NCBI GenBank assembly: GCA_017610205.1
Contig: JAFCCL010000001.1
Location: 81,883 to 145,882 of the forward strand
DNA length: 64,000 nt
Origin: Candidatus Iainarchaeum sp.
Lineage (GTDB): Archaea > Iainarchaeota > Iainarchaeia > Iainarchaeales > GCA-2688035
Direction of reading: 5' to 3'
In this document: positions 2,909 through 50,025 of the stretch, piece after piece
How the letters are laid out: every line of letters starts with the position of its first letter
Numbering within the stretch: the first letter of the stretch is position 1
The notes under the pieces: model-generated
What the model was told of the DNA's origin: nothing
Databases searched by the model: none
What the model saw: the letters and a program-made list of their open reading frames with translations, nothing else
Program-made: the position numbers and the translations under genes

Positions 2909-3815
2909 ACATTCTTTTTAAACCTTCGTCTAAAGAAATTTTTGCTTCAAATCCCAATATCTTTTTTGCCAACTGGCCTGATGGAACCCTTTTAAAAATT
3001 TCTCTGGCGTTTGTTCTGTCACTATTTTCCATATTAACAAACTTCGGATTTAGTTTCTTTCCACTTAACTTAATAACTTTTTCTGCCAACAGTTTCATCG
3101 AAATTGGTTCTGAATTGTTGCATATGTTAAAAACTTTTTCATTAGCTTCCTTTTTTGTTAGTGCTAAAAGCACGCCATTGGAAGCGTCTTCTACATTACA
3201 AAAAGCCCTGATTTGTTCACCATTTCCAAAAACAACCGGGTTTTTATCGTTTAATACATTATCAACAAATATTGGAATCACAAATTTTTTAGCTTGATTT
3301 ATTCCGTATACATTAAAGAATCTAATAATTGAATAATTTAAATCATATCTTTGTTTATAAGCTTTTAGATATTCTTCACTTATTGCCTTAGTCAAACCAT
3401 AAACTGATTTTGGTTTCAGTTCATTTTTTTCTGTAATAGGAAAAACTGTTTGTTCGCCGTAAACTTCGCTTGATGAAGAAAAAACAATTTTTTTAACATT
3501 TTCTTTAACACATGCGTCTAAAACATTAATAGTTCCCTGAGTGTTTATAGTCAAACAGTCCAATCTGTTTAATTCAGTGTTTTTAACGCCAATCATTGCT
3601 GCTAAATGTACTACATAGTCACAGCCTTTAATTGCTTGTGATAGGCATGTTGAATCTAATATGCTTCCATAACAACATTTAATATTTTCTGAAAATTTCT
3701 TGTTTTTGAATTGATTAAAAAGGTCAAAAACGCATACTTCAAATCCTTCTTTAGCTAATCTTTCAGAAACATGGCTTCCAATAAAACCAGCTCCGCCTGT
3801 TACTAAAACTTTCAT
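2892..3815 (-). CDS. NAD-dependent nucleotide-sugar epimerase/dehydratase (extended SDR)
   Basis: N-terminal VLVTGGAGFIGSH Rossmann motif, a catalytic YxxxK region, and about 307 aa. Confidence 0.8.
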   Translation of the reverse strand: MKVLVTGGAGFIGSHVSERLAKEGFEVCVFDLFNQFKNKKFSENIKCCYGSILDSTCLSQAIKGCDYVVHLAAMIGVKNTELNRLDCLTINTQGTINVLDACVKENVKKIVFSSSSEVYGEQTVFPITEKNELKPKSVYGLTKAISEEYLKAYKQRYDLNYSIIRFFNVYGINQAKKFVIPIFVDNVLNDKNPVVFGNGEQIRAFCNVEDASNGVLLALTKKEANEKVFNICNNSEPISMKLLAEKVIKLSGKKLNPKFVNMENSDRTNAREIFKRVPSGQLAKKILGFEAKISLDEGLKRMFEAKQ

Positions 3816-3904
3816 ATTTTGTCACACACTCCTTTTTTTGCCTATTTTAATTTTTTTTATGCATTTTTAGGTAGTTATATTTCTAAATCGGATTTTTTTC
3901 TTAA

Positions 3905-4504
3905 TTATTTAAATTTTGCTTTGGTTTTTTCCGATATAATTTTTGTCAGCCCTTCTTTTATTATAATACCTGATAACACAATAGGTAACATTCCTGTTGT
4001 CAAAATTATTTTAGTGTAAAATAAACCTTTTCCTATTTTCTTTTTTAATTTTATTTTTGCCCTGTTAATTTTAGGGTGTTTGGTTTTGTGATAATATGAC
4101 CCTTCTTTCAAAATTGTTTGAAATTCTTTTTTTGTTTTGACCGGGGTATAACAATAATCCGGGACTTTTGTATAAAATTTTTTTTCTCCAACTGGAAAAT
4201 AAGCAATTGTGACAACTTTTAAAAGTAATCCTTCTAATACTACTGTTGAAATTCCTTTGTATGCAATTGTAACATTCAAATTTGCTTCAAGCATTTGCTT
4301 ATACAGTTTTGTTGTATTATCCAAGTAAACTCTCATGCCTTTTTTTTTGATATATGTTTTAATCTGTTTTTCGTTGCTACTTTTATGCAGCCTTACTGTT
4401 ATTTCTATATTTTTATCATTTAATTCTGAAATATCTTCGAGAGTTTTTGCAATTGGTTCAAAACCAGCGCAAGTTATGATTAAAACTTTGTACATTTTTT
4501 TCAC
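3905..4504 (-). CDS. hypothetical protein (Rossmann-like N-terminus; glycan-cluster associated)
   Basis: 199-aa ORF with good coding potential and a 4-nt overlap with the downstream PHP gene. I recognise no family. Confidence 0.3.
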   Translation of the reverse strand: MKKMYKVLIITCAGFEPIAKTLEDISELNDKNIEITVRLHKSSNEKQIKTYIKKKGMRVYLDNTTKLYKQMLEANLNVTIAYKGISTVVLEGLLLKVVTIAYFPVGEKKFYTKVPDYCYTPVKTKKEFQTILKEGSYYHKTKHPKINRAKIKLKKKIGKGLFYTKIILTTGMLPIVLSGIIIKEGLTKIISEKTKAKFK

Positions 4505-5400
4505 CTTTTATTTTCAAAACTTTTTAAGTTCAATGTTAACTGCGATGATTTTTTAATTTTTTTGAGAACCGAATCTGGAATTGTAACTGAATTAATTGTT
4601 TGCCTATCGCCCCCATGAAAATCGCTTCCTCCTGATTCAAGCAGGTTTTTTTCTTTTGCAATTTTCTGGAAAAATTTTATTATTTTCGTGTTTTCTTTTT
4701 TATCAATTTTTAATCTTGGGCAAATTATATAGTAAGGGTAATATGTTTCAATTCCTTGTCCTCCTTGTTTTTTAAAAAACTCGATTAATTTGATAGCCTT
4801 TTCTTTTGGAAAAATTCCAGGATGTGCAAGAAATGTTGTGCCACCAGCTTTTTTTATTATTGTTATTGCTTCTTTAATTCCTGACTTTGATTCCCTGTCA
4901 ACATAGGCTGGTTTGCCTGCTCCTAAATATTTTTCAAAAGCTTCTCTGATTGAGTGGATTTTGTTAGGGTATTTTTTCATAAGTAGCATGGCTATATGCG
5001 GTCTTCCCAATGTTCCTTTTACTCCTGATTTTAGTTCTTCAAAACTTATGTCGAAGCCAAGTTTTTGCAATTTTTTTACAATTTTTTTCTTTTGCTCAAG
5101 CCTGTCCTGTTTTGCCTTTTTGACAAATTTGTTTAGTTCATTGTTTTTGTAATCAACAAATAATCCAACAACTTCCGCTTCTTTGAATCCGTGTTTTTCT
5201 TCGTCGCAATTTATTTCTATTCCTGGAATAATCTCGATTCCTTTGCCTTTTGCATATTTGACAGCTGGTACAATGCCACTTATTGTATCGTGGTCTGTTA
5301 TAGCTATGGCATTAAGGCCTTTTTTTAATGACAGTTTAACCAATTCTTCTGGTGAAAGCCTTCCGTCTGAAGCTGTTGTGTGCATATGCAAATCTACCAT
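4501..5400 (-). CDS. PHP-domain metal-dependent phosphoesterase (TrpH/YciV-like); candidate 3',5'-bisphosphate nucleotidase (pAp phosphatase)
   Basis: N-terminal VDLHMHTTASDGRLSPEELV matches the PHP motif (DLHxHTxxSDG). The pAp-phosphatase role is inferred from the neighbouring APS kinase and sulfotransferase and from the known PHP-family Cv1693-type enzyme. Confidence 0.75.
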   Translation of the reverse strand: MVDLHMHTTASDGRLSPEELVKLSLKKGLNAIAITDHDTISGIVPAVKYAKGKGIEIIPGIEINCDEEKHGFKEAEVVGLFVDYKNNELNKFVKKAKQDRLEQKKKIVKKLQKLGFDISFEELKSGVKGTLGRPHIAMLLMKKYPNKIHSIREAFEKYLGAGKPAYVDRESKSGIKEAITIIKKAGGTTFLAHPGIFPKEKAIKLIEFFKKQGGQGIETYYPYYIICPRLKIDKKENTKIIKFFQKIAKEKNLLESGGSDFHGGDRQTINSVTIPDSVLKKIKKSSQLTLNLKSFENKR

Positions 5401-8340: not shown

Positions 8341-8877
8341 ATGAACGTAAAATCTGGTACAATCTGGTTTTCGGGTTTACATGGTTCTGGAAAAACAACT
8401 ATTGCAAAAGCCATTTCTGAAAAACTTAGATTTAATGGCATAAAAGTTGTTGTATTGGATGGTGATGAATTGAGAAAAGGTCTTTCGGCAGACCTTAACT
8501 ATTCTTTGGAAGAACGCAACAAGCACTTAAAAAGGGTTGCAAACATCTGCAAGATTATTTCAGAAAATGATGTTTTGAATATTGCCTGTGTTGCTTCCCC
8601 AACTGAAAAAAGTAGAACTTATGCAAAAGGAATCATTTCTAATTTTTTTGAAGTTTATATTAAATGTCCTCTACAAGTGTGTGAACAAAGAGATGTCAAA
8701 GGACATTATAAACGTGCAAGGGCTGGAGAAGCTGGTTTTGAAAACTTTTTGGGAATAAATCTTACATTTGAAGAGCCAAAATCAGCAGATTTTGTTCTTG
8801 AAACCGACAAAGAGCCTGTTAATAATTCAGTTGAAAAGCTCTTCAATAAGATTTTGGAAAAAAACTGGCTCAAGTAA
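8341..8877 (+). CDS. cysC: Adenylylsulfate (APS) kinase
   Basis: WFSGLHGSGKTTIA P-loop and overall similarity to CysC; about 178 aa. It is divergently transcribed from the nucleotidyltransferase pair. Confidence 0.85.
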   Translation: MNVKSGTIWFSGLHGSGKTTIAKAISEKLRFNGIKVVVLDGDELRKGLSADLNYSLEERNKHLKRVANICKIISENDVLNIACVASPTEKSRTYAKGIISNFFEVYIKCPLQVCEQRDVKGHYKRARAGEAGFENFLGINLTFEEPKSADFVLETDKEPVNNSVEKLFNKILEKNWLK

Positions 8878-8892
8878 TAATATTTATCTTTT

Positions 8893-9858
8893 TCAATTTT
8901 TTTCCCATTTTTCTTCATATTGTTTTCCAAGTTCTAAAATAGCAGAATAGCATTCTTTGCTTGAATTTTTCTTTATAACATCTATTTTTTCTTTCCGTTC
9001 TGTTTTTGGATGTGGAATAAAACGTTCTTTTGCCATTAATAATTTCATTTCCGGTGTTATTTTTCTTTTCAAAAAATTTGAAATCTTTTCAAGTTCTGGT
9101 TCTGGTTTTGTTGACAATAATTCATATGTAAGAAAATGTATTCTTTTGCTATAGTTGTCAGGCAGTTTTTTTAAAGATTTTATACTCATTTTGTTCAAAG
9201 TTTGCATTGATGTGATTATTCGGTCCATTTCTGACATTTTTGCATATTTATCAGTCCATTGGTATGCAAACCATGGTACTGGTCCATTTTTTCCTTTTAT
9301 TGGAATGCTAAATACTTTTGGGTCTTTGCCCCATCTTTTTCCATAACCTCTTTTAAACCAAGAGTATGTTAGATCAACAGGGTTTCTTTTGATTTTAATT
9401 ACTTTTAATTTTGGGTAAATATCAAAAAAGAGTTTTATATTTGACATGGCTTCATGCAAAACAAACGGAAAAATTTTTTCGCTTTTTTTTATTTTTTGCA
9501 CTGCTGAATCACCGTCTTCTTCAAATAATCGTTTCATATAACTATCTGCCTTTGGAGAATTAGTGATGCTGCTTTTGTCAGAAAAACGAAAATTAAGATT
9601 TCGGCCAATTACCCTGTTATAAACAAAGTTATCAATTTGGCTTCCGATAATGGCTTTTGCAGTTTCTTTTTCAATAAATCCAAGCATATTTAGTTGTGAA
9701 ATTTGTTCAGGTATACTAAAATACAGGAATTTTTCGACATTTTCAAATCCTTCGATTAGGTTTGCTAAAAACATTTTTCCTGCTCTGGTGTGCCCGTCAA
9801 GAAAAATAATATTTTCAACAAGTTTTGCTCTTTCACTTAAATGAATTTCTTTTGACAT
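8893..9858 (-). CDS. PAPS-dependent sulfotransferase (glycan/lipid sulfotransferase family)
   Basis: A 5'-PSB-like FLDGHTRAGKMF motif and a strong 3'-PB motif, KRNPVDLTYSWF (RxPxDxxxS). It is convergent with and adjacent to cysC. Confidence 0.55.
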   Translation of the reverse strand: MSKEIHLSERAKLVENIIFLDGHTRAGKMFLANLIEGFENVEKFLYFSIPEQISQLNMLGFIEKETAKAIIGSQIDNFVYNRVIGRNLNFRFSDKSSITNSPKADSYMKRLFEEDGDSAVQKIKKSEKIFPFVLHEAMSNIKLFFDIYPKLKVIKIKRNPVDLTYSWFKRGYGKRWGKDPKVFSIPIKGKNGPVPWFAYQWTDKYAKMSEMDRIITSMQTLNKMSIKSLKKLPDNYSKRIHFLTYELLSTKPEPELEKISNFLKRKITPEMKLLMAKERFIPHPKTERKEKIDVIKKNSSKECYSAILELGKQYEEKWEKN

Positions 9859-9994
9859 TTATACAAACTCCTTTTTTGATAAGAAAATGTTTTTTAGTTA
9901 TCTTATTTTTAAAATTTAATTAACTAATAAATACTTTTTACTGCAAACATATATATATATTGATTTTTGGTGCATTTTCAATTTATAAATTTCT

Positions 9995-11779
9995 CTATTT
10001 TAACAATCTGATAATTCTTTCAGTTGCTTTTCCATCCTGTTTAAATCCAAATTCATATAAAAATTTGGCTACTTTTTTTTCATGGGCTTTTTTGTTATCT
10101 TTTTCTTTCAAAAACTTTTGAATTGATTTCTTAAAGTTGTCTTTTTTTCCGGTAATTCTTTTAATTCCTTCAAAAAGAGTCTGGTCTTTAGTTTTTCTAT
10201 AGATTGCTGTTGGCTTTTTTAAAGCCATTGCTTCAAGACCAATAATTGGTGAAATGGCTATTACTGCATCTGCACAGTTAATAAGCCGATGTAAATCTGT
10301 TTTATTTAAAAGAATTGCCTTTCCTTTGCTGTTTGTTATTATTTTAGCATAATCTTTTTTGTTTTCAAATGCGTGGATTTTAATAACAAGTTTTGTATTT
10401 TTGATTTCTTTTACTGCTTCCATTGCTGCAGAAGCAATTTCAATTGGCAAAACTTTGTTTTTTTCAACTGGTTGGGTTACAAGTACCACCAACTTTTCTT
10501 TTTTGGAAACACCAATGCTTTTTCTAAAAGAATACCCGTTGGTTTTCTTGTTATACAAAACATCAAAGCGCGGAGACCCTGTAATAGAAATTTTTTTGCC
10601 AGGGACCATTTTTTTTTCCAAATTTTTTTTGTAATGAGGTCCCCAAACAGCAATTTTGTCTGCTACAACTGGTGCAAACCCCCTTATGAAATCAGGTTGG
10701 TTTGTGTTTGCGCTGAAAAGTCCGTGTTGTACAACCACGCTTTTTGCATTAATTTTTTTTGCAAGAAGTACACAAATTCTTTCAAATGGAATCCAATCTT
10801 CCCAAACAACAACTGCACACGGCTTTTTTTCCTTAAACTCTTTCAAAAGCATTTCAATAAGGAAAACAAATTCTGGCCAGTCCCTTTCACTAAAGCGTGG
10901 CATGAATTTGAAAAAAACATCTGCGAAGTTAATGTCATTAAAAACCATTTTTTTTCTAAATTTTGATTTTTCAGAAAGTTCTTTGAAAAGTCCTTTGAAA
11001 AAAATTCTTTTTTCTTTTTTTGTTTTTACAAATCTTTTTGCATTCCATGGCATTAAAATTTTTCTTACAACAAAGTTGTCAAGTGAACTAACTGAAAAAC
11101 TATTGTTTTTTTCAACTTCTTTTGAAAAGCGGTCTAGATAGCCATTACTTTTTACAAAAACAATATCTGCTCCGTTTTTTATGATTATTTTTTCTTTCAA
11201 AATTGAAAAAACTTTTTTTTGAAAATCTGCAATTTTTTTCTTGTTAAAATTTAATTTTCTTTTTTTTTCTAATGGTTGTTCTATTTCAATTTCTTTAAAT
11301 CTTGCAGATGTTGCTTTTGCAACTGCCTTTGCGCAGTCACTTGAAAAACTGTCTTTAATGCCAATAAAAGTTTTGGTTTTTTCACACTTTGCGGCATTAA
11401 TGCCTGAGTTTATTGCAAGGAAAGTTTGTCTAAAAAGGTTGTAAATTGCAAAATCTGAAACAAAACCAAGTGAAATTTCTTTCATTGTGCTTGCCTGTTC
11501 GATTTTTTTGTCAAATTTGTACCAATTTCTTGAAAAAAACAATGCCTTTTTATTAATAAAATAAAGTTCTCTATCTGAAACAAGGTCTGTTTCTTCAAAA
11601 ACTTTAATGTTTTTTGCAAAAATTCTTTGCCCTGGCCAAAATTCAAGACAAATGCATTTTATTATTACATTTGGTTTTTTTGCAGCAAATTTGAGAACTC
11701 CATCAAATTCTTTTCTGTTTGAAGCAAACGCAATAATGTTTTCCATTTTTTTTCTGTTTGAAGAAGTGATTTTTTCCAT
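9995..11779 (-). CDS. GT-B-fold polysaccharide biosynthesis protein (CDP-glycerol glycerophosphotransferase TagF / KpsC-like)
   Basis: 594 aa. The C-terminal half has a VVQHGLF...WGPHY...ITGSPRFD...KIHAFEN pattern reminiscent of the TagF/Glyphos_transf and capsule-biosynthesis families. Confidence 0.4.
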   Translation of the reverse strand: MEKITSSNRKKMENIIAFASNRKEFDGVLKFAAKKPNVIIKCICLEFWPGQRIFAKNIKVFEETDLVSDRELYFINKKALFFSRNWYKFDKKIEQASTMKEISLGFVSDFAIYNLFRQTFLAINSGINAAKCEKTKTFIGIKDSFSSDCAKAVAKATSARFKEIEIEQPLEKKRKLNFNKKKIADFQKKVFSILKEKIIIKNGADIVFVKSNGYLDRFSKEVEKNNSFSVSSLDNFVVRKILMPWNAKRFVKTKKEKRIFFKGLFKELSEKSKFRKKMVFNDINFADVFFKFMPRFSERDWPEFVFLIEMLLKEFKEKKPCAVVVWEDWIPFERICVLLAKKINAKSVVVQHGLFSANTNQPDFIRGFAPVVADKIAVWGPHYKKNLEKKMVPGKKISITGSPRFDVLYNKKTNGYSFRKSIGVSKKEKLVVLVTQPVEKNKVLPIEIASAAMEAVKEIKNTKLVIKIHAFENKKDYAKIITNSKGKAILLNKTDLHRLINCADAVIAISPIIGLEAMALKKPTAIYRKTKDQTLFEGIKRITGKKDNFKKSIQKFLKEKDNKKAHEKKVAKFLYEFGFKQDGKATERIIRLLK

Positions 11780-20470: not shown

Positions 20471-21406
20471 TTAGGTATCTGCAAACAGGTGATATACTCC
20501 GTGGTGGAATTTGTCTTCCGCAATCATTTCGTCAATAGTTCTTTCAAATCTTCCCTGTTCTGAAAGAACATTTTTTGAAAGGATTTTTTTAGAAAATTTT
20601 AGTATATCCATTGATTCCCAAACCACCAGGCATTTGCGAACGCCGTGTTTTTTCAAAAGCCTGTAAAACTCCTTTGTTTTTTCCACTCCCAAAAAATCAC
20701 AATGTACTTCAATAAACAGCTGAAGATGTCCTGTTTCCTTAAAAGTTTTTTTCATTCCTTTCAGTATCTCAAATTCGTATCCTTCAACATCCATTCTTAC
20801 AATATCTGGAAGCCGTTTGTCTTTGAGAAAAGAATCAAGGGTAGTAACTTCAACAGGAACTGTTTCCCCTGTTTGATCCAAATCAATATTTTTGCAAAAG
20901 GTTGACAGGTTTGATTGCTTTGAAACAAAAATATCCTGCTTTCCGTTCTTGTCTCCAACAGCTTTGTTAAAAACCTCAATGTTTTTGTAATTATTTGCAT
21001 CAATGTTTTTCTTCAGCAACTCAACATTTCCAATAATTGGTTCTATTGCGTAAACTTTTCCTTTTGGGCCAACAGCCTTTGCTTCCATTAGCACATAATA
21101 GCCAATGTTTGCTCCAATGTCGGCAATAACCTGTCCTGATTTCAGCCTTTTCTGGAATTCAACTGTTGCATGAGCTTCTCGTATTCCATTAAGGTATAAT
21201 TCTGATGAAAGCCCTTTGTCGTCTCTTATGTTAAGAAATATTTTGCTTCCCTGCACGTCTTTTAAGACAAAATCCTCTCTATGTCTCATTTTTGCAATTG
21301 CCATTTTTATTCCTGTAACACCTCGGTCAGCTTTTATTAGCATAATTTTTATTCCTCGTTGAATAAAAGTTGCAGGGCTGTCTTCTAAAAGTCTACTCCA
21401 ATTCAA
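20471..21406 (-). CDS. FkbM-family SAM-dependent methyltransferase
   Basis: VIADIGANIGYYV...VYAIEP motif typical of FkbM (Methyltransf_21). Confidence 0.7.
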   Translation of the reverse strand: MNWSRLLEDSPATFIQRGIKIMLIKADRGVTGIKMAIAKMRHREDFVLKDVQGSKIFLNIRDDKGLSSELYLNGIREAHATVEFQKRLKSGQVIADIGANIGYYVLMEAKAVGPKGKVYAIEPIIGNVELLKKNIDANNYKNIEVFNKAVGDKNGKQDIFVSKQSNLSTFCKNIDLDQTGETVPVEVTTLDSFLKDKRLPDIVRMDVEGYEFEILKGMKKTFKETGHLQLFIEVHCDFLGVEKTKEFYRLLKKHGVRKCLVVWESMDILKFSKKILSKNVLSEQGRFERTIDEMIAEDKFHHGVYHLFADT

Positions 21407-22872
21407 TCTTCTCTCCTCCTCTTTGATTTTACAACATACTTTATAAATGTCTTTCCTCCCTTCACTAATCTTGGTATTTCGCTTGGTTGTGTGACTGCCT
21501 GCAGTGCTTTTCCCATCATATAACTTGGTCTGAAATAAAATTCTTTTCTTGCTCTGTCACACCATTCAACCATTTCCTTGTTTGATAGTTCGGGCATTGA
21601 CACCATGCAATTATGCCACCCGTTTTCGTCAATCCACTGCCTAAAATCTTCTGATACAAGATGTCCTTTTTTTCTAAAATGTTCGTATGAAGCTGTTCCT
21701 GGATAAACCATAATTGGAAAAAATTGTGCTGAATCTGGGTTTAGTCTTTTTGCAAGTTCAATTGTTGCCCTGATTGTTTCTTTATTGTCCCCTGGGTTTC
21801 CAACCATAAAACACCCGTGTACAAGAACACCTGCTTTTTTTGCATCTTTTATAAATTGTTCCATTTTTGGAACAATTGTTCCTTTTGAAACATTGTTTAA
21901 AATTTCCTGGCTTCCTGATTCAAATCCAACACACAAAAGCCTGCAGCTAGCTTTTTTCATAAGTTTTAATGTTTCCAATGGCACATCAGCCCTTGCATTG
22001 CAGCTCCACTTTACTTTTATTCCTGCTTTTATTTTTTCTTTGCAAAAATTGTCAACTCTTTTGTGGTCTGCAGTAAAGGTGTCGTCTTCAAGGAAAACCT
22101 CTTTTATTCCTGGAAAGCTTTTCACAATAAATTCAAATTCTTTTATTACATTTGCAATGCTTCTTTTTCTGTAAGGACCTGGGTTAAGGTTCTGCACCCA
22201 GTTGCAAAACTTGCAGTTAAAAGGGCATCCTCTGCCTGTAACAATTGCAACCTCTGGATAAAGATTGGCACTATAAAAATAATCCTTATAATTCAAATGC
22301 TTTTTGTAAACCCTGCTGACAAAAGGCAGTTTGTCAAGGTTTTTTATTTTTTCCCTTAACTTGTTTTTTACAATTTTTGCACCTTGTTTAAATGCAATTC
22401 CTTTAACCTTTGCAAGCTTTGGCTTTTTCTTCTCCAGTTCTTTTGCCAACGCCCTTAAAGTGTAATCGTATTCCTGCATGCACACTGCATCAATTGCTTT
22501 GCTCATCTTCATTGTTTCAACAGGCAAAGCACTTACGTGTGTGCCAACCAATACTCCAAAGCACCTGTGGGCTTTCTTTACCTTTCGCAAAACTTCGACA
22601 TCATTGTGGATGCTTGCAGTGCTTGTATCCAACACCACCATGTCTGGTTTAAATTTTCTTACAATTGCAAGCACTTTCTTTTCGCTTAAAGGAATGGCTG
22701 GTGCGTCAACAAGCTTTACTTCGTGTCCTGCTTTTTCCAAAACGCCTGTGGCATATGCAAGCCACATTGGATAATAGATTGTTCCGCCTTTTGTAACGGC
22801 AGGCGACCTGCTGCTCCTGCTATACTTTGGAAAGAACGGGGGATTTAACATTAAAATTCGCATGAAATTCAC
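21403..22872 (-). CDS. B12-binding domain radical SAM protein (class B radical SAM, probable methyltransferase)
   Basis: An N-terminal cobalamin-binding-like domain and a GRGCPFNCKFC radical SAM cysteine motif. It overlaps the FkbM gene by 4 nt. Confidence 0.8.
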   Translation of the reverse strand: MNFMRILMLNPPFFPKYSRSSRSPAVTKGGTIYYPMWLAYATGVLEKAGHEVKLVDAPAIPLSEKKVLAIVRKFKPDMVVLDTSTASIHNDVEVLRKVKKAHRCFGVLVGTHVSALPVETMKMSKAIDAVCMQEYDYTLRALAKELEKKKPKLAKVKGIAFKQGAKIVKNKLREKIKNLDKLPFVSRVYKKHLNYKDYFYSANLYPEVAIVTGRGCPFNCKFCNWVQNLNPGPYRKRSIANVIKEFEFIVKSFPGIKEVFLEDDTFTADHKRVDNFCKEKIKAGIKVKWSCNARADVPLETLKLMKKASCRLLCVGFESGSQEILNNVSKGTIVPKMEQFIKDAKKAGVLVHGCFMVGNPGDNKETIRATIELAKRLNPDSAQFFPIMVYPGTASYEHFRKKGHLVSEDFRQWIDENGWHNCMVSMPELSNKEMVEWCDRARKEFYFRPSYMMGKALQAVTQPSEIPRLVKGGKTFIKYVVKSKRRRED

Positions 22873-23606
22873 TTTTCTTTTTTGCTTAGTTTCTTGGTTT
22901 CCAAATTTGCATTCAAAAGGTCTTCAAAGTCTCCTGCGTCAAGCCAGTTGCCTTTGAGTTTTGCTGCTGAAAGTTTTCCTTTTTCAAGGAAATGCCTTTG
23001 CACGTCGGTTATTTCTGTTTCGCCTCTTGCACTTGGCTTTATTCCCCTAATTGCTTTGAACACGCTTGGATTCATAAAATATATTCCAATAATTATGTTG
23101 TTGCTTGTGGGCTTTGCAGGCTTTTCAATTACTTGAGTAACTTTTTCTCCTTCAACATCTGCAACCCCGCTTTTTTTTGCCTCTTCTGTTGTTCCTTCGT
23201 ACAAAAGAATCTGCATTTCTGAATCTCCTTTTTCAAATTGTTCTGCAAATGGTTTCAGGCTTTCAAAAACAATGTTGTCTCCATTAATTGAAATAAATTT
23301 ATCGTCTCCGACAAAATCCTCTGCCAAAGAAATTGCGCTTGGAATTCCTCCTGCTTCATCCTGAACCCTGTAAGTGAATTTTACTCCAAAATCCTTTCCT
23401 GAACCCAAATGTGAAAAAATGTCTCCTGCATGGTATGTTCCTGTAATAATCAGAATATCTTTTACTCCTGCACTTTTAAGCATTTCAATCGGGTAATAAA
23501 TCATTGGCTTGTTGTAAACAGGCAAAAGATGTTTATTTGTTGTAAGAGTCAAGGGGCGTAAACGAGATCCTGTCCCTCCAGCAAGAATTACTCCTCTAAG
23601 TGTCAT
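22869..23606 (-). CDS. Sugar-1-phosphate nucleotidyltransferase (glucose-1-phosphate thymidylyltransferase-like, short form)
   Basis: GVILAGGTGSRLRPLTLTTNKHLLPV signature; 245 aa. Confidence 0.8.
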   Translation of the reverse strand: MTLRGVILAGGTGSRLRPLTLTTNKHLLPVYNKPMIYYPIEMLKSAGVKDILIITGTYHAGDIFSHLGSGKDFGVKFTYRVQDEAGGIPSAISLAEDFVGDDKFISINGDNIVFESLKPFAEQFEKGDSEMQILLYEGTTEEAKKSGVADVEGEKVTQVIEKPAKPTSNNIIIGIYFMNPSVFKAIRGIKPSARGETEITDVQRHFLEKGKLSAAKLKGNWLDAGDFEDLLNANLETKKLSKKEK

Positions 23607-24550
23607 TAACTTAACCTCCTTTTTATTTCAAGATATTTTGTATATTTTCTATCTAAATAATATGAGGGGTTTGAATAAAGCCAATCAAAAATTTTGATTG
23701 CTTGAAATCTTCCCCTATATCTTAGAGCAAAGTGATTAGTTAGTTTTGTATTTCTTGTTAATTTAGTCTTTCTTAACTCTAAATATTTCATCAATTGTAA
23801 TTGAATTCCTGTTAAAAGTTCTTTTGTTCCAACTATCTGAAAACATGGTGATTGTGTTTTTTCATCAAACAAAAGACTTCCGTCTCCTTCAAATATCCCT
23901 TGAATAAAATTTTTTATGATTTTTTCATTATAGGTTTCTTTAATTAATTTAGGAAATTTAATTTTAAGACTTTTATTTTTGACTATGCCATACTCTTTAA
24001 GTTTGCTTACAATTTTTTTACTTGTTATCTTTAGATGCATTTGTTCATATTCTTTACCTGTTTTTTCAAGTTTTACCGTTACCTCATAAACAGGCCCATT
24101 GTATTTGAGTAACTTTTTTATTTTTTGAATTATATCTGAATCTTTTTTTGATACTTTTATACCAACGCTTATTGCATTGCCACATTTATTAACAAATCCA
24201 TTGCTTGCAAGCCAACCTAATATCCATGCATTTAAGGGATTTAACTCTTCAAAAAAATTATCGTTCACCGAATACTTTCGCTTATGAATTTTCCATGTTT
24301 TTTCTTTAGCCTTTAAACCATACTTTTTCATTCTATGACTTATAACCCATTGAGAGGTTCCCAATTCGCTGGCTATATCTTGTTGAGATTTATTTTTCTC
24401 AAAATATTCTTGTTCAATAAATTCTTTGCTGATATCATATTTTTTAGGCATGTAATAATCAAAGTTTATCCCTTTAAAGACGCTTTCTAAAGAGTAGGTT
24501 TCCGGTGATTTGTTGTCTCCTTCTTCTACAAATAATTGATTCAATACCAT
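23606..24550 (-). CDS. Free-standing LAGLIDADG-family homing endonuclease-like protein with N-terminal HTH
   Basis: It has two LAGLIDADG-type motifs, NAWILGWLASNGFV (degenerate) and KNFIQGIFEGDGSLLF (canonical GxxxGDGS). An N-terminal helix-turn-helix-like segment precedes them. The gene is markedly more AT-rich than its flanking genes. Confidence 0.6.
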   Translation of the reverse strand: MVLNQLFVEEGDNKSPETYSLESVFKGINFDYYMPKKYDISKEFIEQEYFEKNKSQQDIASELGTSQWVISHRMKKYGLKAKEKTWKIHKRKYSVNDNFFEELNPLNAWILGWLASNGFVNKCGNAISVGIKVSKKDSDIIQKIKKLLKYNGPVYEVTVKLEKTGKEYEQMHLKITSKKIVSKLKEYGIVKNKSLKIKFPKLIKETYNEKIIKNFIQGIFEGDGSLLFDEKTQSPCFQIVGTKELLTGIQLQLMKYLELRKTKLTRNTKLTNHFALRYRGRFQAIKIFDWLYSNPSYYLDRKYTKYLEIKRRLS

Positions 24551-24849
24551 AAAATTGATCGCCTCTTAGTGGTTCTAAAGTATATTGCAAAAAAAGTACC
24601 GAGAATTGAAACGAAAACAAATCCTTGCAAAAATTGAATAGCCCAGTGTGGATAAACATAAGTTGCATTTACTAAGAAATAATTTGAATTAATTAGATCA
24701 AGAATGAAAAAAAAAGAAAGTCCAATTAAACACAATCCAACGACTGCTAAAGTTTTTTTTGGGTCCGTCCATGTATACTCAATTGCTTTTACAAATAACT
24801 GTTTAATAATAATTATTTTTTCGTTTGAGATTATTTTTTCGCCCTTCAT
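24541..24849 (-). CDS. small hypothetical membrane protein (2 predicted TM helices)
   Basis: 102-aa ORF that is AT-rich and adjacent to the HEG. I recognise no family. Confidence 0.3.
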   Translation of the reverse strand: MKGEKIISNEKIIIIKQLFVKAIEYTWTDPKKTLAVVGLCLIGLSFFFILDLINSNYFLVNATYVYPHWAIQFLQGFVFVSILGTFFAIYFRTTKRRSILWY

Positions 24850-24993
24850 TTGTACAAATTCCCCTCTTTTTTTAGAAAAAAATTGGTCTGCAATTTATAG
24901 TATATATTGTATTTATTTCCTCCAAACCTTCATTATAAAGGCTTTGGTACAGTTTTGGAAAACGACCTTAATTAACAAAAAAGAGCCACAATT

Positions 24994-25959
24994 TCAAGTT
25001 TGCTTGATTAAAGGCTTCCACCAGGCTTCGTTTTTTTTGTACCATTCAACTGTTTCTTTCAAACCTTTTTTGAAATCTGTTTCGGCTTTCCAGCTCAATT
25101 CCTTTTCAATTTTTGAACAGTCGAGGCTGTAGCGCAGGTCGTGTCCCAACCTGTCCTTAACTTTTTCAATCATTTCGTCGCCCTTGCCTAATTCTGCAAG
25201 AATCATTTTTGTAAGCTCGATATTCTGCAACTCGTTTCCGCCGCCAATGTTGTAAACTTCTCCAATCTTTCCCTTTTCAAGTACTGTATCAATTCCGCTG
25301 CAGTTGTCTAAAACAAAAAGCCAGTCACGAACATTCTTTCCCTCTCCATACAATGGAACTTTTTTGCCTGTAATGATGTTTGTTACAAAAAGCGGAACAA
25401 TTTTTTCAGGAAACTGGAAAGGACCATAATTATTGCTGCTTCTTGTTACAAGAACAGGCAATCCATAGGTTGTAAAATAGCTCATTGCAAGAAGTTTGCC
25501 TCCTGCCTTTGCTGCACTGTAAGGGTTTCTTGGGTTTAGCTTGTCTGTTTCCTTAAAGCTTCCTTCTGCAATTTGCCCATAGACTTCGTCTGTTGAAATC
25601 TGAATAAATTTTTTAACATCCTGTTTTCTTGCCTGTTCGCACAAAACTTTTACTCCAAAAAAATTTGTCCTTGCAAATGCATCCGAATCCTCAATTGACC
25701 TGTCAACATGGCTTTCTGCAGCAAAATTTATTACTGTTTCACATCCTTCCATTGCTTTTTTCACATCGCTAGGATTGCAAATGTCTCCTTTGAAAAACGT
25801 GTAATTTGTGTTGTTTTCAATGTCCTGAAGGCTTTCCTTTCTGCCTGCGTAAGTAAGCTTGTCAAGGTTTACAATTTGGTCTTCTGGAAATTTTTCAAGG
25901 CGTTGCCTGATATAATTACTTCCAATAAAGCCACAACCTCCTGTTACAAGAATCTTCAT
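24994..25959 (-). CDS. rmlB: dTDP-glucose 4,6-dehydratase
   Basis: MKILVTGGCGFIGSNYIRQ... and full-length RmlB-like similarity. The start is taken at the ATG at 25959; the ORF track extends to a TTG at 25971. Confidence 0.85.
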   Translation of the reverse strand: MKILVTGGCGFIGSNYIRQRLEKFPEDQIVNLDKLTYAGRKESLQDIENNTNYTFFKGDICNPSDVKKAMEGCETVINFAAESHVDRSIEDSDAFARTNFFGVKVLCEQARKQDVKKFIQISTDEVYGQIAEGSFKETDKLNPRNPYSAAKAGGKLLAMSYFTTYGLPVLVTRSSNNYGPFQFPEKIVPLFVTNIITGKKVPLYGEGKNVRDWLFVLDNCSGIDTVLEKGKIGEVYNIGGGNELQNIELTKMILAELGKGDEMIEKVKDRLGHDLRYSLDCSKIEKELSWKAETDFKKGLKETVEWYKKNEAWWKPLIKQT

Positions 25960-25961
25960 AA

Positions 25962-26038
25962 ATTCCACCAATTCCTTTTATCAATAACTCCTGTTAATTT
26001 TTTTGTCAATAAATTCCACTAATTCCTTTTATCAATAA
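25962..26038. repeat. Two copies of a 28-nt direct repeat (AAATTCCAC[CT]AATTCCTTTTATCAATAA) in the rmlB / radical-SAM divergent intergenic region
   Basis: The copies lie at about 25960-25988 and 26010-26038 with one mismatch, separated by a T-rich spacer. Confidence 0.4.
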
Positions 26039-26123: not shown

Positions 26124-26157
26124 CTCATATACTTATTAACTCAGGATTTGTTTGAAT

Positions 26158-27672
26158 ATGCAAAAAAAGCAAAAAGTTGTACTTTTTTTACCAAAAGCAA
26201 GAAAGCACACATTTCACGGAACTTTGCCTGTTGCCTTGCTTAAACTTGCTTCAATGGTTGACAGAAAAAAGTTTGATTTGGATTTAATTATTGCAAAACC
26301 AAATGTAGATTATGAAAAGCAGGTGGTTGAAGCATCCAAGGGTGCTATGTGTGTTTGTTTAAGTGTTCTGACTGGTAATGATATTACTAATGCATTGACG
26401 ATTACAAAAAAAATCAGAGTTGTTTCAAAGGCTACTGTTGTTTGGGGTGGCTGGCATGCAAGTATTTTTCCAGAGCAAACTCTTGAGAATCAATATGTTG
26501 ACATTGTAATCAGGGGACAGGGGGAAAGAACTTTTCAAAAGCTAATTGAACGTCTTGCTGAAAAGAAAAGCCTAAAAGGATTACTTGGTGTTTCCTACAA
26601 AGAAGGGGGAAAAATTAAGCGCAATGAAGACCGGCCTTTTGAGGACATAAACAATTTTCCGCCAATTTCCTACAATTTAGTTAATTTAGAAGATTATATT
26701 TCAACCTTTAATGGAATGCGTGGCATGGTTAGTTTTACCAGCCAGGGCTGTCCTTTCAACTGCAAATTCTGTGCAGAGCCATTGGTTTACAAACAGCAAT
26801 ATTCTGCGCTTTCAAATGACAGGATTCTTGACGAATGGGAATTTTTTGTTAAGGAACATAATATTAAGTTTGTTGGAATTACTGACGACAATTTTTTTGT
26901 TAATGAAGCAAAAATAATTGACTTTTGTCAAAAGCTTCTTAAAAGAAAGCTTGGAGTAAAATGGGGCAAGGCTTGTGGAAGGGTTAGACAAATGCTTGCG
27001 TTCAAAGACAGCACTTGGCAGCTTATTGCCGATGCAGGTTGTATGGATATTGAAATTGGAGACGAAAGTGGAATTCAGAGCACTCTTGATTTTATTAACA
27101 AACAGTTGTCTGTTGAAGAAATTGTGGAATTTACAAATAAATGCAGAAAGTATGGTTTTGAGGTAATGCACAATTGGCTTTATGGAATTCCTTTGCCTCA
27201 GTTCAAAACAATGAACAAAAAGGAAATTAATGCCTGGATTTGGAAAGAGTGGCTTGCAATGTTTGATGTAATGGATAAATGCCACCACAAATACAAGGAT
27301 TATGATGAAGTTAGAGTTTGTCCATACTATCCCTATCCTGGAAATCCACTCTTTGACCTGTCATGCGAGCTTGGGTTCAAACCGCCAACAAAGCTTGAAA
27401 ACTGGGCTAACCTCAAACCAGCTATATGGCTTGATGACTCCTGGAATGACAAGCGAAGAATGCTTTTGCATTTTATTTTTCCATATGCATCGGATTTTTA
27501 TGCTGAAAGGCACATGAAAAAATTTAGGCTGGTTCAAAGATTTTTCCACGAAACAGCAAAGTTTAGGTGGAAGTACAGATATTTTGGATTTCCATTAGAC
27601 TACAGGTTGTATGAGTTTTACACCAATTTCAGAATGAAAATCACAGGCGTTTCTGCAACTGAGCACGATTAA
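26158..27672 (+). CDS. B12-binding domain radical SAM protein, paralog 1
   Basis: SQGCPFNCKFC radical SAM motif and an N-terminal B12-binding-like domain. It is about 60% identical to the downstream paralog. The start is taken at the ATG at 26158. Confidence 0.8.
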   Translation: MQKKQKVVLFLPKARKHTFHGTLPVALLKLASMVDRKKFDLDLIIAKPNVDYEKQVVEASKGAMCVCLSVLTGNDITNALTITKKIRVVSKATVVWGGWHASIFPEQTLENQYVDIVIRGQGERTFQKLIERLAEKKSLKGLLGVSYKEGGKIKRNEDRPFEDINNFPPISYNLVNLEDYISTFNGMRGMVSFTSQGCPFNCKFCAEPLVYKQQYSALSNDRILDEWEFFVKEHNIKFVGITDDNFFVNEAKIIDFCQKLLKRKLGVKWGKACGRVRQMLAFKDSTWQLIADAGCMDIEIGDESGIQSTLDFINKQLSVEEIVEFTNKCRKYGFEVMHNWLYGIPLPQFKTMNKKEINAWIWKEWLAMFDVMDKCHHKYKDYDEVRVCPYYPYPGNPLFDLSCELGFKPPTKLENWANLKPAIWLDDSWNDKRRMLLHFIFPYASDFYAERHMKKFRLVQRFFHETAKFRWKYRYFGFPLDYRLYEFYTNFRMKITGVSATEHD

Positions 27673-27758: not shown

Positions 27759-27794
27759 ATGCTATTGAATCACTTTTTTTTGGGTTTGACTAAT

Positions 27795-29312
27795 ATGCCG
27801 GTAAGACAAAAAATAATTCTTTTTTCTCCAAAACCAAGAAGACATACTTACAGCAACAGTATTCCTGTTGCATTGCTCAAAATTGCGTCAATGATTGACC
27901 GTAAAAAATACGAATCGGTAATTGTTTCAGCAACACCAAAATATGACTACGAAACCCAGATTTTGAAGGATTCAAAAGATGCATTGTGCTTTGCTGTTCG
28001 CGTGTTAACAGGACACGACATAATTGAAGCAATAGAGCTAATAAAAAAAATCAAAAAAGTTAACCCAAACCTTCCTATTGTATGGGGTGGATGGCATGGT
28101 GCAATTTTTCCAGATCAAACTCTTGAAAGCAGCTATGCTGATATAATTATAAGGGGTCAGGGTGAGCGCACTTTCAAAGAACTTGTTGAAAGGTTGGTTA
28201 CAAAAAAAGATCTTAAAGGATTACCAGGCATTATTTACAAAGACAAAAGCGGAAAAATAATTCACAACCCTGAAAGGCCTTTTGAAGACATAAATAATTT
28301 TCCGGACATTCCCTACGATCTCATTAACATAGACGATTACGTTGACAACTTTGACGGTTTGCGTGCGGCATTTTATGTCACAAGCCAAGGCTGTCCTTTT
28401 AAATGTAAATTTTGCGCGGAACCACTTGTATTCAAGCAACGATGGTCTTCCCTAAGCAACGAGCGCATTCTCAAAGACTGGGAATACCTTTCAAAAAAAG
28501 GCATTGAATTTATCATAATTGGTGATGACAACTTTTTTGTAAACGAAAAAAAAGTCAAAGACTTTTGTGAAAAATTCATTGCAAAAAAACTTCCGTTAAA
28601 ATGGGGCCGTGTTTCTGGAAGGGTTAGGCAAATGCTTGCTTTTTCTGACGAAACCTGGCAGCTTATCAAAGACACTGGCTGTACAGACATACAGGTTGGC
28701 GCAGAAACAGGCGACCAAAATGTGCTTGACTACATTGGAAAAGAGCTTACTGTTGACGAAATAGTGCAATTTATTGAAAGGGCAAGGAAATTCAAAATAA
28801 AGGCAACTCCTGCCTTCATTCTCGGTCTTCCAACAGAGGAATTCAGAAAAGCTTCATCAAAAGAAATTCAAAAACTTTTAGACAAACAGTGGAATGCATT
28901 TTTTGACGTAATGGACAGGTGCTATAAAGACCACAAGGACTATGACGAAATCCGTTTGTTTGCCTACGATCCTTATCCTGGAAACCCACTTTATGATTTA
29001 TCCTGTGAGCTTGGTTTTGACGCGCCAAAAAAGCTTGAAGAATGGGCAATAATTCGACCTGCTCCTTGGATAAAAGAAAGTCTTCGTGAAAAAATAAGAA
29101 TGCTTCAATATTTTTTGTTTCCCTATGCTCGCGATGGTTACGCAGGCAGACACATAAAAAAATTCAAGCTGTTGCAAAAGCTTTTTCACAAAAGCGCACA
29201 ATGGCGATGGAAGCACAGATTCTTTGCACTGCCAATAGAATACAAAATGTACCGGGCTTATACAAACCTTAGAACCAAAAAAACAGGGCAATCTGCAACA
29301 GACCATGAATAA
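27795..29312 (+). CDS. B12-binding domain radical SAM protein, paralog 2
   Basis: SQGCPFKCKFC motif. Its start is aligned to paralog 1 (MPVRQKIILF). It is preceded by the same 62-nt leader as paralog 1. Confidence 0.8.
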   Translation: MPVRQKIILFSPKPRRHTYSNSIPVALLKIASMIDRKKYESVIVSATPKYDYETQILKDSKDALCFAVRVLTGHDIIEAIELIKKIKKVNPNLPIVWGGWHGAIFPDQTLESSYADIIIRGQGERTFKELVERLVTKKDLKGLPGIIYKDKSGKIIHNPERPFEDINNFPDIPYDLINIDDYVDNFDGLRAAFYVTSQGCPFKCKFCAEPLVFKQRWSSLSNERILKDWEYLSKKGIEFIIIGDDNFFVNEKKVKDFCEKFIAKKLPLKWGRVSGRVRQMLAFSDETWQLIKDTGCTDIQVGAETGDQNVLDYIGKELTVDEIVQFIERARKFKIKATPAFILGLPTEEFRKASSKEIQKLLDKQWNAFFDVMDRCYKDHKDYDEIRLFAYDPYPGNPLYDLSCELGFDAPKKLEEWAIIRPAPWIKESLREKIRMLQYFLFPYARDGYAGRHIKKFKLLQKLFHKSAQWRWKHRFFALPIEYKMYRAYTNLRTKKTGQSATDHE

Positions 29313-48831: not shown

Positions 48832-48950
48832 GATTAGCAGCTTTAAGACCGCTCCAAGCAAAAACTCAGTGCAAAACCTTTTCCCCGCAGGTCTTAACTT
48901 CCGGGTTCGAGATGGGACCGGGTGTTTCCCCTGTAGCATGGCCGCTAATC
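48832..48950 (-). rRNA. rrf: 5S ribosomal RNA (unlinked to other rRNA genes in this window)
   Basis: The minus strand reads GAUUAGCGGCCAUGCUACAGGGGAAACACCCGGUCCCAUCUCGAACCCGGAAGUUAAGACCUGCGGGG...GCUGCUAAUCG. The loop-C region is universally conserved. The 5' and 3' ends form a 10-bp helix I (GAUUAGCGGC/GCUGCUAAUC). An oligo-T run follows. Confidence 0.75.
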
Positions 48951-49419: not shown

Positions 49420-50025
49420 TCACTTATTTTTTTTCTTTCCTGGCTTTTTTGCTGCAGATTTTTTTTTTGCTGGCTTTTTTGCAACCTTTTTCTTCTTGCC
49501 AATAACTAATTCCTCTGCAACCTTTAGGCCCTTTCTCAAAAGGCTTTCCCTTTTTGCACCTGCACAAATCATTTTGCCGTTTTTGAACAGCAAGAGCGTG
49601 AGCTTTGGGTCGGCAATTCTTAGGATTGCTCCTGGAAACTGTTCTGGCTCATACTCTACGTTGTCCAAATCCATTGCTGTTTGAAACAAGTCAAGGTTTT
49701 GGTTCAGGTTTGCTGTTGCAACCAAATTCACAACATTGTACTTTACAGTTTTTTGAATCTTTACCTGTTTTTGAATTCCGTGAATTAGCTTGCTTGCCTT
49801 TCTAATAGCCTGTGCAATCTGCTTTTCGCTGCTTGCACCGCTGCAAATAACCTTTCCGTTTTTGAACAAAAGCATTGAAACTTTTGGCTCCTTCAGTTTC
49901 AAAATTGCTCCAGGAAACTGCTCTGGCTCATACTCAATATTTGGAATGCTCACAGCTAAATTATATAAGTCAAGTGTGGCATTCAAATTGGATGAGGCAA
50001 CCAAATTCACAATAGTATACTTCAT
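49420..50025 (-). CDS. tbp: TATA-box binding protein with basic lysine-rich C-terminal tail
   Basis: Two imperfect direct repeats, KYTIVNLVASSNL... and KYNVVNLVATANL..., with EYEPEQFPGAIL present twice. The C-terminus is GKKKKVAKKPAKKKSAAKKPGKKKNK. Confidence 0.9.
   Translation of the reverse strand: MKYTIVNLVASSNLNATLDLYNLAVSIPNIEYEPEQFPGAILKLKEPKVSMLLFKNGKVICSGASSEKQIAQAIRKASKLIHGIQKQVKIQKTVKYNVVNLVATANLNQNLDLFQTAMDLDNVEYEPEQFPGAILRIADPKLTLLLFKNGKMICAGAKRESLLRKGLKVAEELVIGKKKKVAKKPAKKKSAAKKPGKKKNK

Follow-up and report, generated by a model that had tools for sequence, protein, structure and literature searches.

Genes and features at the locus

The DNA studied here is a stretch of 64,000 nucleotides (nt) from Candidatus Iainarchaeum sp. 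(assembly GCA_017610205.1, contig JAFCCL010000001.1, positions 81,883 to 145,882), referred to below as the window and numbered from its first letter. Its subject is a free-standing gene for a homing endonuclease of the LAGLIDADG type, which lies in a nucleotide-sugar operon on the minus strand. The order of the features on this strand is rmlB, a spacer, a short orphan open reading frame (ORF), the endonuclease gene and an rmlA-like gene. The rmlB gene (24994..25971) encodes dTDP-glucose 4,6-dehydratase and matches TIGR01181 with 448.6 bits, above the cutoff. Between its stop codon and the orphan ORF lies an AT-rich non-coding spacer of 144 nt with a G+C content (GC) of 28.5% (24850..24993). 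The orphan ORF (24541..24849) codes for 102 amino acids (aa) with two predicted transmembrane helices and overlaps the start of the endonuclease gene by 10 nt. The endonuclease gene itself (23606..24550, 314 aa) is followed by the gene of a 245-aa sugar-1-phosphate nucleotidylyltransferase (22869..23606). This protein belongs to the NTP_transferase family (PF00483, 188.9 bits) and scores under the rmlA equivalog cutoffs (TIGR01208, 240.7 bits). The flanking genes are therefore rmlB and an rmlA-like gene, as the original prediction for this locus had it.

The junction between the endonuclease gene and rmlA (23604..23620) is very tight. The stop codon TAA of the endonuclease (23608-23606) shares one base with the ATG of rmlA (23606-23604), and the two ORFs are in different frames. 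A Shine-Dalgarno-like AGGAGG (23620-23615) is situated 8 nt 5′ of this ATG and is encoded by the C-terminal codons K-R-R-L of the endonuclease. The 1.39 kb from 23606 to 24993 have a GC of 28.0%, compared to 36% for the window, 37.8% for rmlA and 38.7% for rmlB, and rank among the lowest 0.6% of segments of equal size, so that the AT-rich islet that had been perceived here is borne out by windowed GC.

A two-domain LAGLIDADG protein with an N-terminal helix-turn-helix

Pfam detected LAGLIDADG_3 (PF14528) at aa 106-186 of the 314-aa protein, with 26.7 bits against a cutoff of 22.5, and HTH_50 at aa 40-79 with 24.1 bits, slightly below the cutoff of 27. The N-terminal helix-turn-helix (HTH) also has a weak similarity to sigma-70 region 4. 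An AlphaFold model calculated from an alignment of 78 sequences (pLDDT 91, pTM 0.80) shows the HTH, followed by two alpha-beta-beta-alpha-beta-beta-alpha domains. The HTH is a three-helix DNA-binding domain at aa 42-76 (24323..24427, minus strand; helices 42-51, 56-63 and 67-76). LAGLIDADG domain 1 comprises aa 105-204 (23939..24238, minus strand), with motif 1, ILGWLASNGF, at aa 110-119 and the codon of Lys193 at 23974-23972. Domain 2 comprises aa 209-313 (23612..23926, minus strand), with motif 2, IFEGDGSL, at aa 219-226 and the codon of Asp223 at 23884-23882. Residues 1-33 form a low-confidence N-terminal extension that is common only to the closest archaeal relatives.

When the model was compared to the PDB with Foldseek, the top matches were the known monomeric LAGLIDADG enzymes bI3 maturase, I-AniI, I-HjeMI, the I-OnuI group, I-SceI, I-DmoI and I-Tsp061I (probability 1.00, E 8e-10 to 5e-6). 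A profile search of the PDB sequences likewise returned I-HjeMI (8e-9) and I-AniI (2e-7). At the level of the modelled structure, a two-motif monomeric LAGLIDADG fold is confirmed for the window ORF, and the HTH and both motifs were found at the places originally proposed. Over its full length (aa 42-309 against profile positions 41-303 of 308) the protein matches the phage 'endonuclease' family phrog_4645 with E=1.7e-39. The HTH stretch also matches the N-termini of the phage HNH endonuclease families phrog_8446 and phrog_7545, and therefore resembles a DNA-binding module that accompanies nucleases.

In Pfam, LAGLIDADG_3 is characteristic of the endonuclease domains of inteins, and the inteins TliVMA and PI-Sce/Pko are among the weaker structural and sequence matches. 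Both observations would fit a decayed remnant of an intein- or intron-borne endonuclease. However, Pfam found no Hint or intein splicing domain in the 314-aa protein, which has its own start and stop and is a separate ORF in a different frame, so that the original statement that it is no intein stands. Nor did the Rfam searches detect an intron, either at E<=1 in 22800-25300 or at the gathering score across the whole window, and the intron-like RNA for which a search had been suggested around the insertion did not appear. Both rmlA and rmlB are complete on either side, no gene is interrupted by an intron, and all 25 relatives compared below are likewise free-standing between genes. We consider such a remnant very improbable.

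The family is found at the 5′ end of rmlA in archaea and bacteria

The window protein has 91 relatives in the databases, about 85 clusters of which form one family with 42-73% identity and a length of 270-330 aa. All of these approximately 85 clusters are unnamed or labelled 'hypothetical'. For the genome scan we used an alignment of the 16 closer sequences, and the DNA context was compared for 25 distinct members (the window and loci L001, L003, L007, L009-L013, L015-L023, L117, L120-L122, L125, L128 and L135). In 25 out of 25 an rmlA-like gene lies directly downstream, with a gap of 0-45 nt. The junction is stereotyped in nearly all occupied loci and consists of a stop/start overlap (ATGA or TAATG) and a GGAGG inside the conserved K-R-R-L codons. 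The upstream neighbours, on the other hand, differ and include rmlB, rmlC, rmlD, a DegT aminotransferase, a beta-propeller protein and hypothetical genes. The family is thus tied to the 5′ end of rmlA irrespective of the upstream gene, and rmlB is no constant neighbour. The idea of an element that splits rmlA from rmlB as such has to be given up.

The named archaeal hosts are Ca. Iainarchaeum/Diapherotrites, GW2011_AR10, Woesearchaeota and Pacearchaeota. Bacterial hosts are Nealsonbacteria of the Candidate Phyla Radiation (CPR), Omnitrophota, and metagenome-assembled genomes (MAGs) labelled Planctomycetia and Gammaproteobacteria. The closest relatives of the host hold the gene at the same place (rmlB-gene-rmlA) with 57-73% identity, and it is therefore an old and recurrent resident of this clade and not the result of a one-off invasion. 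Remote relatives with 21-33% identity occur in Bacillaceae, Methanobacterium and many viral contigs of IMG/VR, and no rmlA was found near these relatives at the loci examined. The rmlA-specific clade (at least 42% identity) is found mainly in cellular MAGs. We found no literature report of an endonuclease family associated with rmlA. The family at rmlA is uncharacterised; intronless homing itself is known.

Distant relatives are present in two copies on the viral contigs L144, L146 and L160. Family members adjoining rmlA also occur in the IMG/VR uncultivated virus genomes L131-L134 (42-494 kb) and L135 (258 kb), and L131-L134 share the member of L122-L124 (up to 505 kb). These five 'viral' records may in fact be cellular contigs that were misclassified, or else very large phages. 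A suspected lesion at the rmlA start of L117, where the called gene is shorter than in L118 and L119, turned out to be a gene-calling difference, since the DNA is identical.

Presence and absence of the gene at a fixed site

For comparison we used the 80 rmlA loci nearest to the window rmlA (44-71% identity), 63 of which have more than 900 nt of upstream flank. None of the 80 carries the gene, and not even a weak similarity to the endonuclease was found in the 400 nt upstream of rmlA. In several of these unoccupied loci rmlB and rmlA are directly adjacent. Some occupied alleles have their nearest neighbours among the unoccupied ones (L007 and L056 with 87% identity, L012 and L039 with 85%, L022 and L107 with 80%). 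L007 and L056 form a precise filled/empty pair. Both loci are collinear (UDP-glucose dehydrogenase, rmlC, rmlA; 74-78% nt identity), and the sole difference is an 858-nt ORF between the rmlC stop and the rmlA ATG of L007. Presence/absence polymorphism at a fixed genomic site is thereby shown for the family. The comparison with empty sites, which had been proposed as a check, supports a mobile element in a nucleotide-sugar operon, as do the fold and the L007/L056 pair, but the single invasion that was first imagined is not what the recurrence in the clade indicates.

Three further stretches of the glycan cluster in the window (near 300, 3200 and 8800) are as AT-rich as the islet, and the cluster is compositionally mosaic. 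Low GC by itself is therefore not diagnostic within the window, and the contrast in GC at third codon positions (GC3) across the family was used in its place. In all loci the GC3 of the endonuclease gene lies at 0.21-0.38, compared to 0.28-0.60 for the adjacent rmlA. The endonuclease gene retains its own composition whatever the host.

The similarities of the endonuclease and of rmlA do not run in parallel. The Nealsonbacteria endonuclease is 50-56% identical to archaeal copies, whereas its rmlA is only 39-46% identical to theirs and 67% to the rmlA of one bacterium. The AR10 endonuclease groups with the Iainarchaeia copies (59-64%), whereas the AR10 rmlA groups elsewhere. Over all pairs, the identities of endonuclease and rmlA are correlated with r=0.29 (Mantel p=0.006). 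In addition, L025 (2911-3264) contains a relic of 117 aa with an in-frame deletion, in which the HTH is joined to the C-terminal end and both motifs are lost. The rmlA gene behind this relic has ATT in place of ATG.

The mosaic composition could also mean that the endonuclease-rmlA pair travels as a unit and is the passenger of a larger transferred glycan island. The other AT-rich stretches and the weak positive Mantel correlation agree with this, and glycosylation clusters are known transfer hot spots, those of Haloferax holding a free-standing LAGLIDADG gene (PMC5867893). However, the flanks of L007 and L056 are collinear on both sides of the single additional ORF, and the gene has a much lower GC3 than the rmlA next to it in one and the same cassette. 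Furthermore, the stub in L019 described below is of the host's own type, and the new 5′ end arrived with the element. Transfer as a passenger is in our view quite unlikely to account for the family.

Scars in rmlA point to a predicted cut site

Old 5′ stubs of rmlA are found upstream of the element in L122/L135, L019 and L125, and the rmlA gene of L001 has a 66-nt insertion scar. In L122-L124 the leftover rmlA start just 5′ of the endonuclease reads MKGVILAGGTGSRLFPITKVTN up to the break, and in L135 it reads MKGIILAGGTGSRLMPLTKVTN; in both cases a complete rmlA follows the endonuclease gene. The stub of L019, MKGVVLAGGLGTRLYPLTYAT(K), continues in frame into the endonuclease. It is of the host's own rmlA type and protein-identical to the Nealsonbacteria N-terminus, while the functional 5′ end differs (...PLTLITNKH). 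In L125-L127 the stub ends with ...YPLN, and next to it lies a palindrome whose 12-bp stem is perfect (TACTTTGTATAT..ATATACAAAGTA; L125 2919-3000). Finally, the rmlA of L001 (6886-7060; L002 is identical) is broken exactly after ...QVTN by the 66-nt insert, and the K-H codons are lost. In the window, no rmlA stub or rmlA-like motif was found in 24551-24993, and the orphan ORF shares only 'MKG' with rmlA.

The breaks in all four lineages fall within rmlA codons 20-24 (window numbering). Three of them are at codon 24 (N24), at or not more than 1 nt from the boundary between ACNAAY and AARCAY, and the L125 break comes after codon 20. The same region distinguishes occupied from unoccupied alleles. 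The latter were retrieved by peptide patterns of the window rmlA, mostly by YNKPMIYY at a distance of 8 codons from the proposed site, and are phylogenetically non-independent. They are nearly uniform, usually T-K-V/I-T-N-K-H-L-L-P, whereas occupied alleles vary at codons 20-23. Thr23 is present in 77 of 78 unoccupied alleles compared to 10 of 23 occupied ones, and Lys21 in 6 of 23 occupied ones. A degenerate consensus 29-mer occurs in 52 of the 80 unoccupied loci and in no occupied locus, and the window does not contain it even at 3 mismatches.

The shared breakpoints together with the allele variation suggest that the homing site has its centre at codons ~20-29 and that resistance substitutions occupy its less constrained left half. 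On this basis, rmlA codons ~20-29 are the predicted target in the adjacent gene. In the window, codons 20-29 (23520..23549, minus strand) read T-L-T-T-N-K-H-L-L-P and depart from the unoccupied consensus at codons 21-22; they are presumably a cleavage-resistant resident version of the homing site.

Several of the scarred loci have further peculiarities. The insert of L001 contains stop codons and two hairpins (fold z=-3.2), and the endonuclease ORF of this locus (P0072) has no stop codon and runs in frame into an rmlA with a CTG start. Possible readings of this arrangement are a pseudogene, a scar of repair or a tiny mobile insert. When the insert was considered as a bulge-helix-bulge or mini-intron, no splice was found that restores the K-H codons. 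The L125 member (P0075, 381 aa) has ~100 extra N-terminal aa resembling additional HTH repeats. In L126/L127 (3958-4660) gene calling splits the downstream rmlA into two ORFs (109 and 135 aa), possibly because of a frameshift.

Catalytic residues are conserved in the family and altered in the window copy

The presumed catalytic positions are the Asp closing each LAGLIDADG helix and a Lys in the inter-domain loop. Among 71 full-length members, Asp117 is kept in 70, Lys193 in 71 and Asp223 in 70, and G222, G224 and S225 are invariant. This conservation argues for selection on nuclease activity.

The window copy is the one that deviates at Asp117. Its motif 1 differs from the family consensus LGWLxSDGF solely by Asn in place of Asp117 (GAT to AAT at 24202-24200). 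Asn117 was found in no other of the 71 members, and it is the sole departure of the window copy among the 52 columns that are conserved in at least 90% of the sequences. The family thus has an acidic residue at the end of both motifs, while the window copy retains the second only (Asp223). The original prediction had called the first motif degenerate. This is correct in that a catalytic Asp is replaced, but the motif is not broadly degenerate, and the accompanying suggestion of a nicking or inactive enzyme was reasonable. In LAGLIDADG enzymes the active sites lie side by side, commonly with a shared metal ion, and mutants range from nickases to dead enzymes (PMC3017599). Owing to Asp117Asn, the intact window ORF probably encodes a protein that is cleavage-deficient or at most a nickase, and that probably binds DNA without making double-strand breaks. 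This would agree with an element at the beginning of the degenerative phase in the homing cycle.

The main rival reading is that of a regulator. According to it, the gene, or at least its Asp117Asn copy, would be a domesticated DNA-binding regulator of rmlA or of the glycan operon that is inherited together with rmlA, comparable to the WhiA type. WhiA is a LAGLIDADG-derived transcription factor that is universal in Gram-positive bacteria and has lost its catalytic residues. It shares with the rmlA family the LAGLIDADG fold and an HTH resembling sigma-70 region 4. However, the HTH of WhiA is C-terminal and that of the rmlA family N-terminal, and the rmlA family has conserved catalytic residues and a patchy distribution. 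The strictly conserved position, the translational coupling to rmlA, the sigma-70 region 4-like HTH and the synteny in all closest relatives would all suit a regulator. So would the fact that the window copy deviates from the conserved columns only at the catalytic Asp, by which cleavage would be lost and binding probably not. On the other side stand the retention of each catalytic Asp in 70 of 71 members and of Lys193 in all, and the patchy distribution, with 0 of 80 sampled rmlA loci occupied and unoccupied neighbours at 80-87% identity. The foreign GC3 in every host, the relic copy and the rmlA stubs, the incongruent similarities of endonuclease and rmlA, and the phage endonucleases as nearest wider relatives also speak against it. 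A regulatory role is unlikely in our judgement; it is disfavoured for the family and possible for the Asp117Asn copy.

Proposed mechanism of intronless homing

A mobile element is indicated by the LAGLIDADG fold with its conserved catalytic residues, by the constant location in front of rmlA and the sporadic occurrence among loci, by the L007/L056 pair, by the deviating base composition and by the relic in L025. We consider it probable that the family consists of free-standing monomeric LAGLIDADG homing endonucleases that colonise the 5′ end of rmlA by intronless homing, and that the window ORF is a resident copy. In a cell with an occupied and an unoccupied allele, the enzyme would recognise ~20-30 bp in the unoccupied rmlA at codons ~20-29 (T-K-V/I-T-N-K-H-L-L-P) and would cut near the N24/K25 codon boundary. 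Repair off the occupied allele would then copy the endonuclease gene and, along with it, the donor's first ~24 codons of rmlA, which bear the resistance substitutions. With homologous upstream flanks this would result in a clean insertion of the ORF alone, while with non-homologous flanks the old rmlA 5′ stub would stay upstream of the element. The resistance substitutions, both repair routes and the co-conversion of the flank are deduced here from the compared loci. Since the end of the endonuclease gene supplies the ribosome-binding site of rmlA and the stop and start codons of the two genes overlap, the expression of rmlA would be preserved.

Several points weigh against this interpretation. 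Activity, site and cut position are all inferred from sequence. The gene is syntenic (rmlB-gene-rmlA) in all closest Iainarchaeia-like relatives, with a similarity that tracks rmlA, a pattern that long vertical inheritance together with rmlA could produce as well. Likewise, a regulator could just as well have an HTH and occupy a constant, translationally coupled position. As L122 and L135 are probably one event, there are only ~4 independent breakpoints, one of which (L125) is four codons off the others. The way in which the unoccupied alleles were retrieved and their shared phylogeny mean that Fisher-type contrasts between the allele classes overstate the significance. The Asp117Asn call comes from one assembled contig.

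The reading can be extended to a currently active cross-domain system. In this case one endonuclease lineage would repeatedly invade the rmlA genes of unrelated hosts, the ultra-small DPANN archaea on the one side and bacteria (CPR, Omnitrophota and others) on the other, by cutting a ~25-bp site that codes for the universally conserved T-K-V-T-N-K-H-L-L-P. It would carry along the resistant first 24 codons, would enter a protein-coding gene with no need of an intron or intein and would convert glycan clusters between domains. We put this forward tentatively and give it somewhat less than an even chance.

Comparison with known systems

The closest parallels are the free-standing endonucleases of T4-like phages, SegF/SegG and MobE, whose spread has been termed 'intronless homing' (Belle et al. 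2002, as cited in PMC5867893; further references are PMC2790892 and PMC2988022). In both systems the gene lies between host genes and outside an intron or intein, and the distribution is patchy among otherwise collinear genomes. The cut, which is a predicted one in the rmlA family, falls into a conserved gene next door, some tens of bp away from the place of insertion, and the gene would spread by co-conversion with a flanking resistant site. The phage enzymes, however, are of the GIY-YIG or HNH type and meet their targets in co-infecting phages. The rmlA family, on the other hand, is LAGLIDADG, resides in cellular chromosomes (DPANN, CPR and other bacteria) as an operon-coupled gene, and its cleavage is predicted.

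I-AniI, I-HjeMI, bI3 maturase, I-DmoI and I-Tsp061I share with the family the two-domain fold and, in the family consensus, the acidic residue ending each helix. They differ in being encoded inside group I or archaeal introns and in having no N-terminal HTH. The sequence identity is only 12-22%, and Asn replaces the first acidic residue in the window copy.

Another archaeal case is found in Haloferax, where alternative N-glycosylation clusters hold a free-standing LAGLIDADG_2 gene, which was proposed as the driver of gene conversion in the island (Shalev et al. 2018, PMC5867893). Like the gene studied here, it is an archaeal chromosomal free-standing LAGLIDADG gene in a low-GC surface-glycosylation cluster, the window cluster being near AglB. 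It belongs, however, to PF03161 and not to PF14528, and no target gene, fixed junction or cross-domain distribution is described for it (PMC5867893). The phrog_4645 family has the same architecture of an HTH and a double LAGLIDADG, and relatives with 22-33% identity are found on many IMG/VR contigs, sometimes in several copies, but these viral relatives do not adjoin rmlA.

To our knowledge, intronless homing by free-standing endonucleases is documented almost only in phages. Comparative genomics here offers a cellular example with a fixed target gene, rmlA, and hosts across archaea and bacteria of groundwater and sediment. The hypothesis is directly testable, since the fossil scars narrow the predicted cut site down to a few nucleotides. 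If active, the family would add to the LAGLIDADG enzymes a new scaffold that combines a modular HTH with a predicted natural target. It would also mark the exchange of DNA between DPANN, CPR and their neighbours, and might drive recombination in surface-glycan clusters, an idea put forward earlier for Haloferax. In any case, ~85 clusters of 'hypothetical protein' can now be named, and the Asp117Asn copy should be flagged as probably inactive.

The orphan ORF, neighbouring genes and other selfish elements

The 102-aa orphan ORF has no homologue among 5.8 billion proteins, no significant match in Pfam/NCBIfam and no match in PHROG, and it is absent from every related locus, including the closest (L117-L121). 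The 144-nt spacer is specific to the window; in the closest relatives, rmlB directly adjoins the start of the endonuclease gene or overlaps with it. The original prediction had listed this two-transmembrane ORF as part of the AT-rich segment. The ORF does exist, but like the spacer it is window-specific and probably lies outside the conserved unit of the element; a role as a conserved partner was rejected on the lack of homologues and its absence from all relatives. Possibly it is not a gene at all but an ORF that arose by chance in AT-rich DNA; otherwise it would be an orphan specific to this lineage.

The window also codes for the TATA-binding protein TBP (49420-50025, minus strand), the oligosaccharyltransferase AglB/STT3 (44472-46634, minus strand) and ribosomal protein L10e, and has a 5S rRNA gene at 48832-48949 (minus strand). 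These genes mark the window as archaeal, and AglB/STT3 places the endonuclease locus in an N-glycosylation neighbourhood. The other AT-rich stretches of the glycan cluster (~300-1700, ~3050-4600 and ~8750-10400; 27.5-28% GC) contain a cytidylyltransferase-GNAT fusion, an epimerase with an unassigned 199-aa ORF, and an adenosine 5′-phosphosulfate (APS) kinase with a sulfotransferase, respectively. The rmlB/rmlA pair is flanked by three paralogous genes for B12-binding radical S-adenosylmethionine (SAM) proteins, at 21403-22872 (minus strand), 26152-27672 and 27759-29312 (both plus strand); the latter two are closely related to each other and lie in tandem. Similar B12-binding radical-SAM genes likewise accompany the locus in the relatives L117 and L120.

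Other selfish or nuclease genes were observed at related loci. In L007 (8581-10858) the UDP-glucose dehydrogenase gene has an intein (PF14890), a second selfish element in the same sugar operon. In the Nealsonbacteria locus L003 (2458-2700 and 6708-7088; also in L004-L006) a 126-aa PDDEXK_3 nuclease-like ORF lies between rmlA and rmlC, and an 80-aa GIY-YIG ORF is found upstream. These two ORFs may be further free-standing nuclease genes in the cluster.

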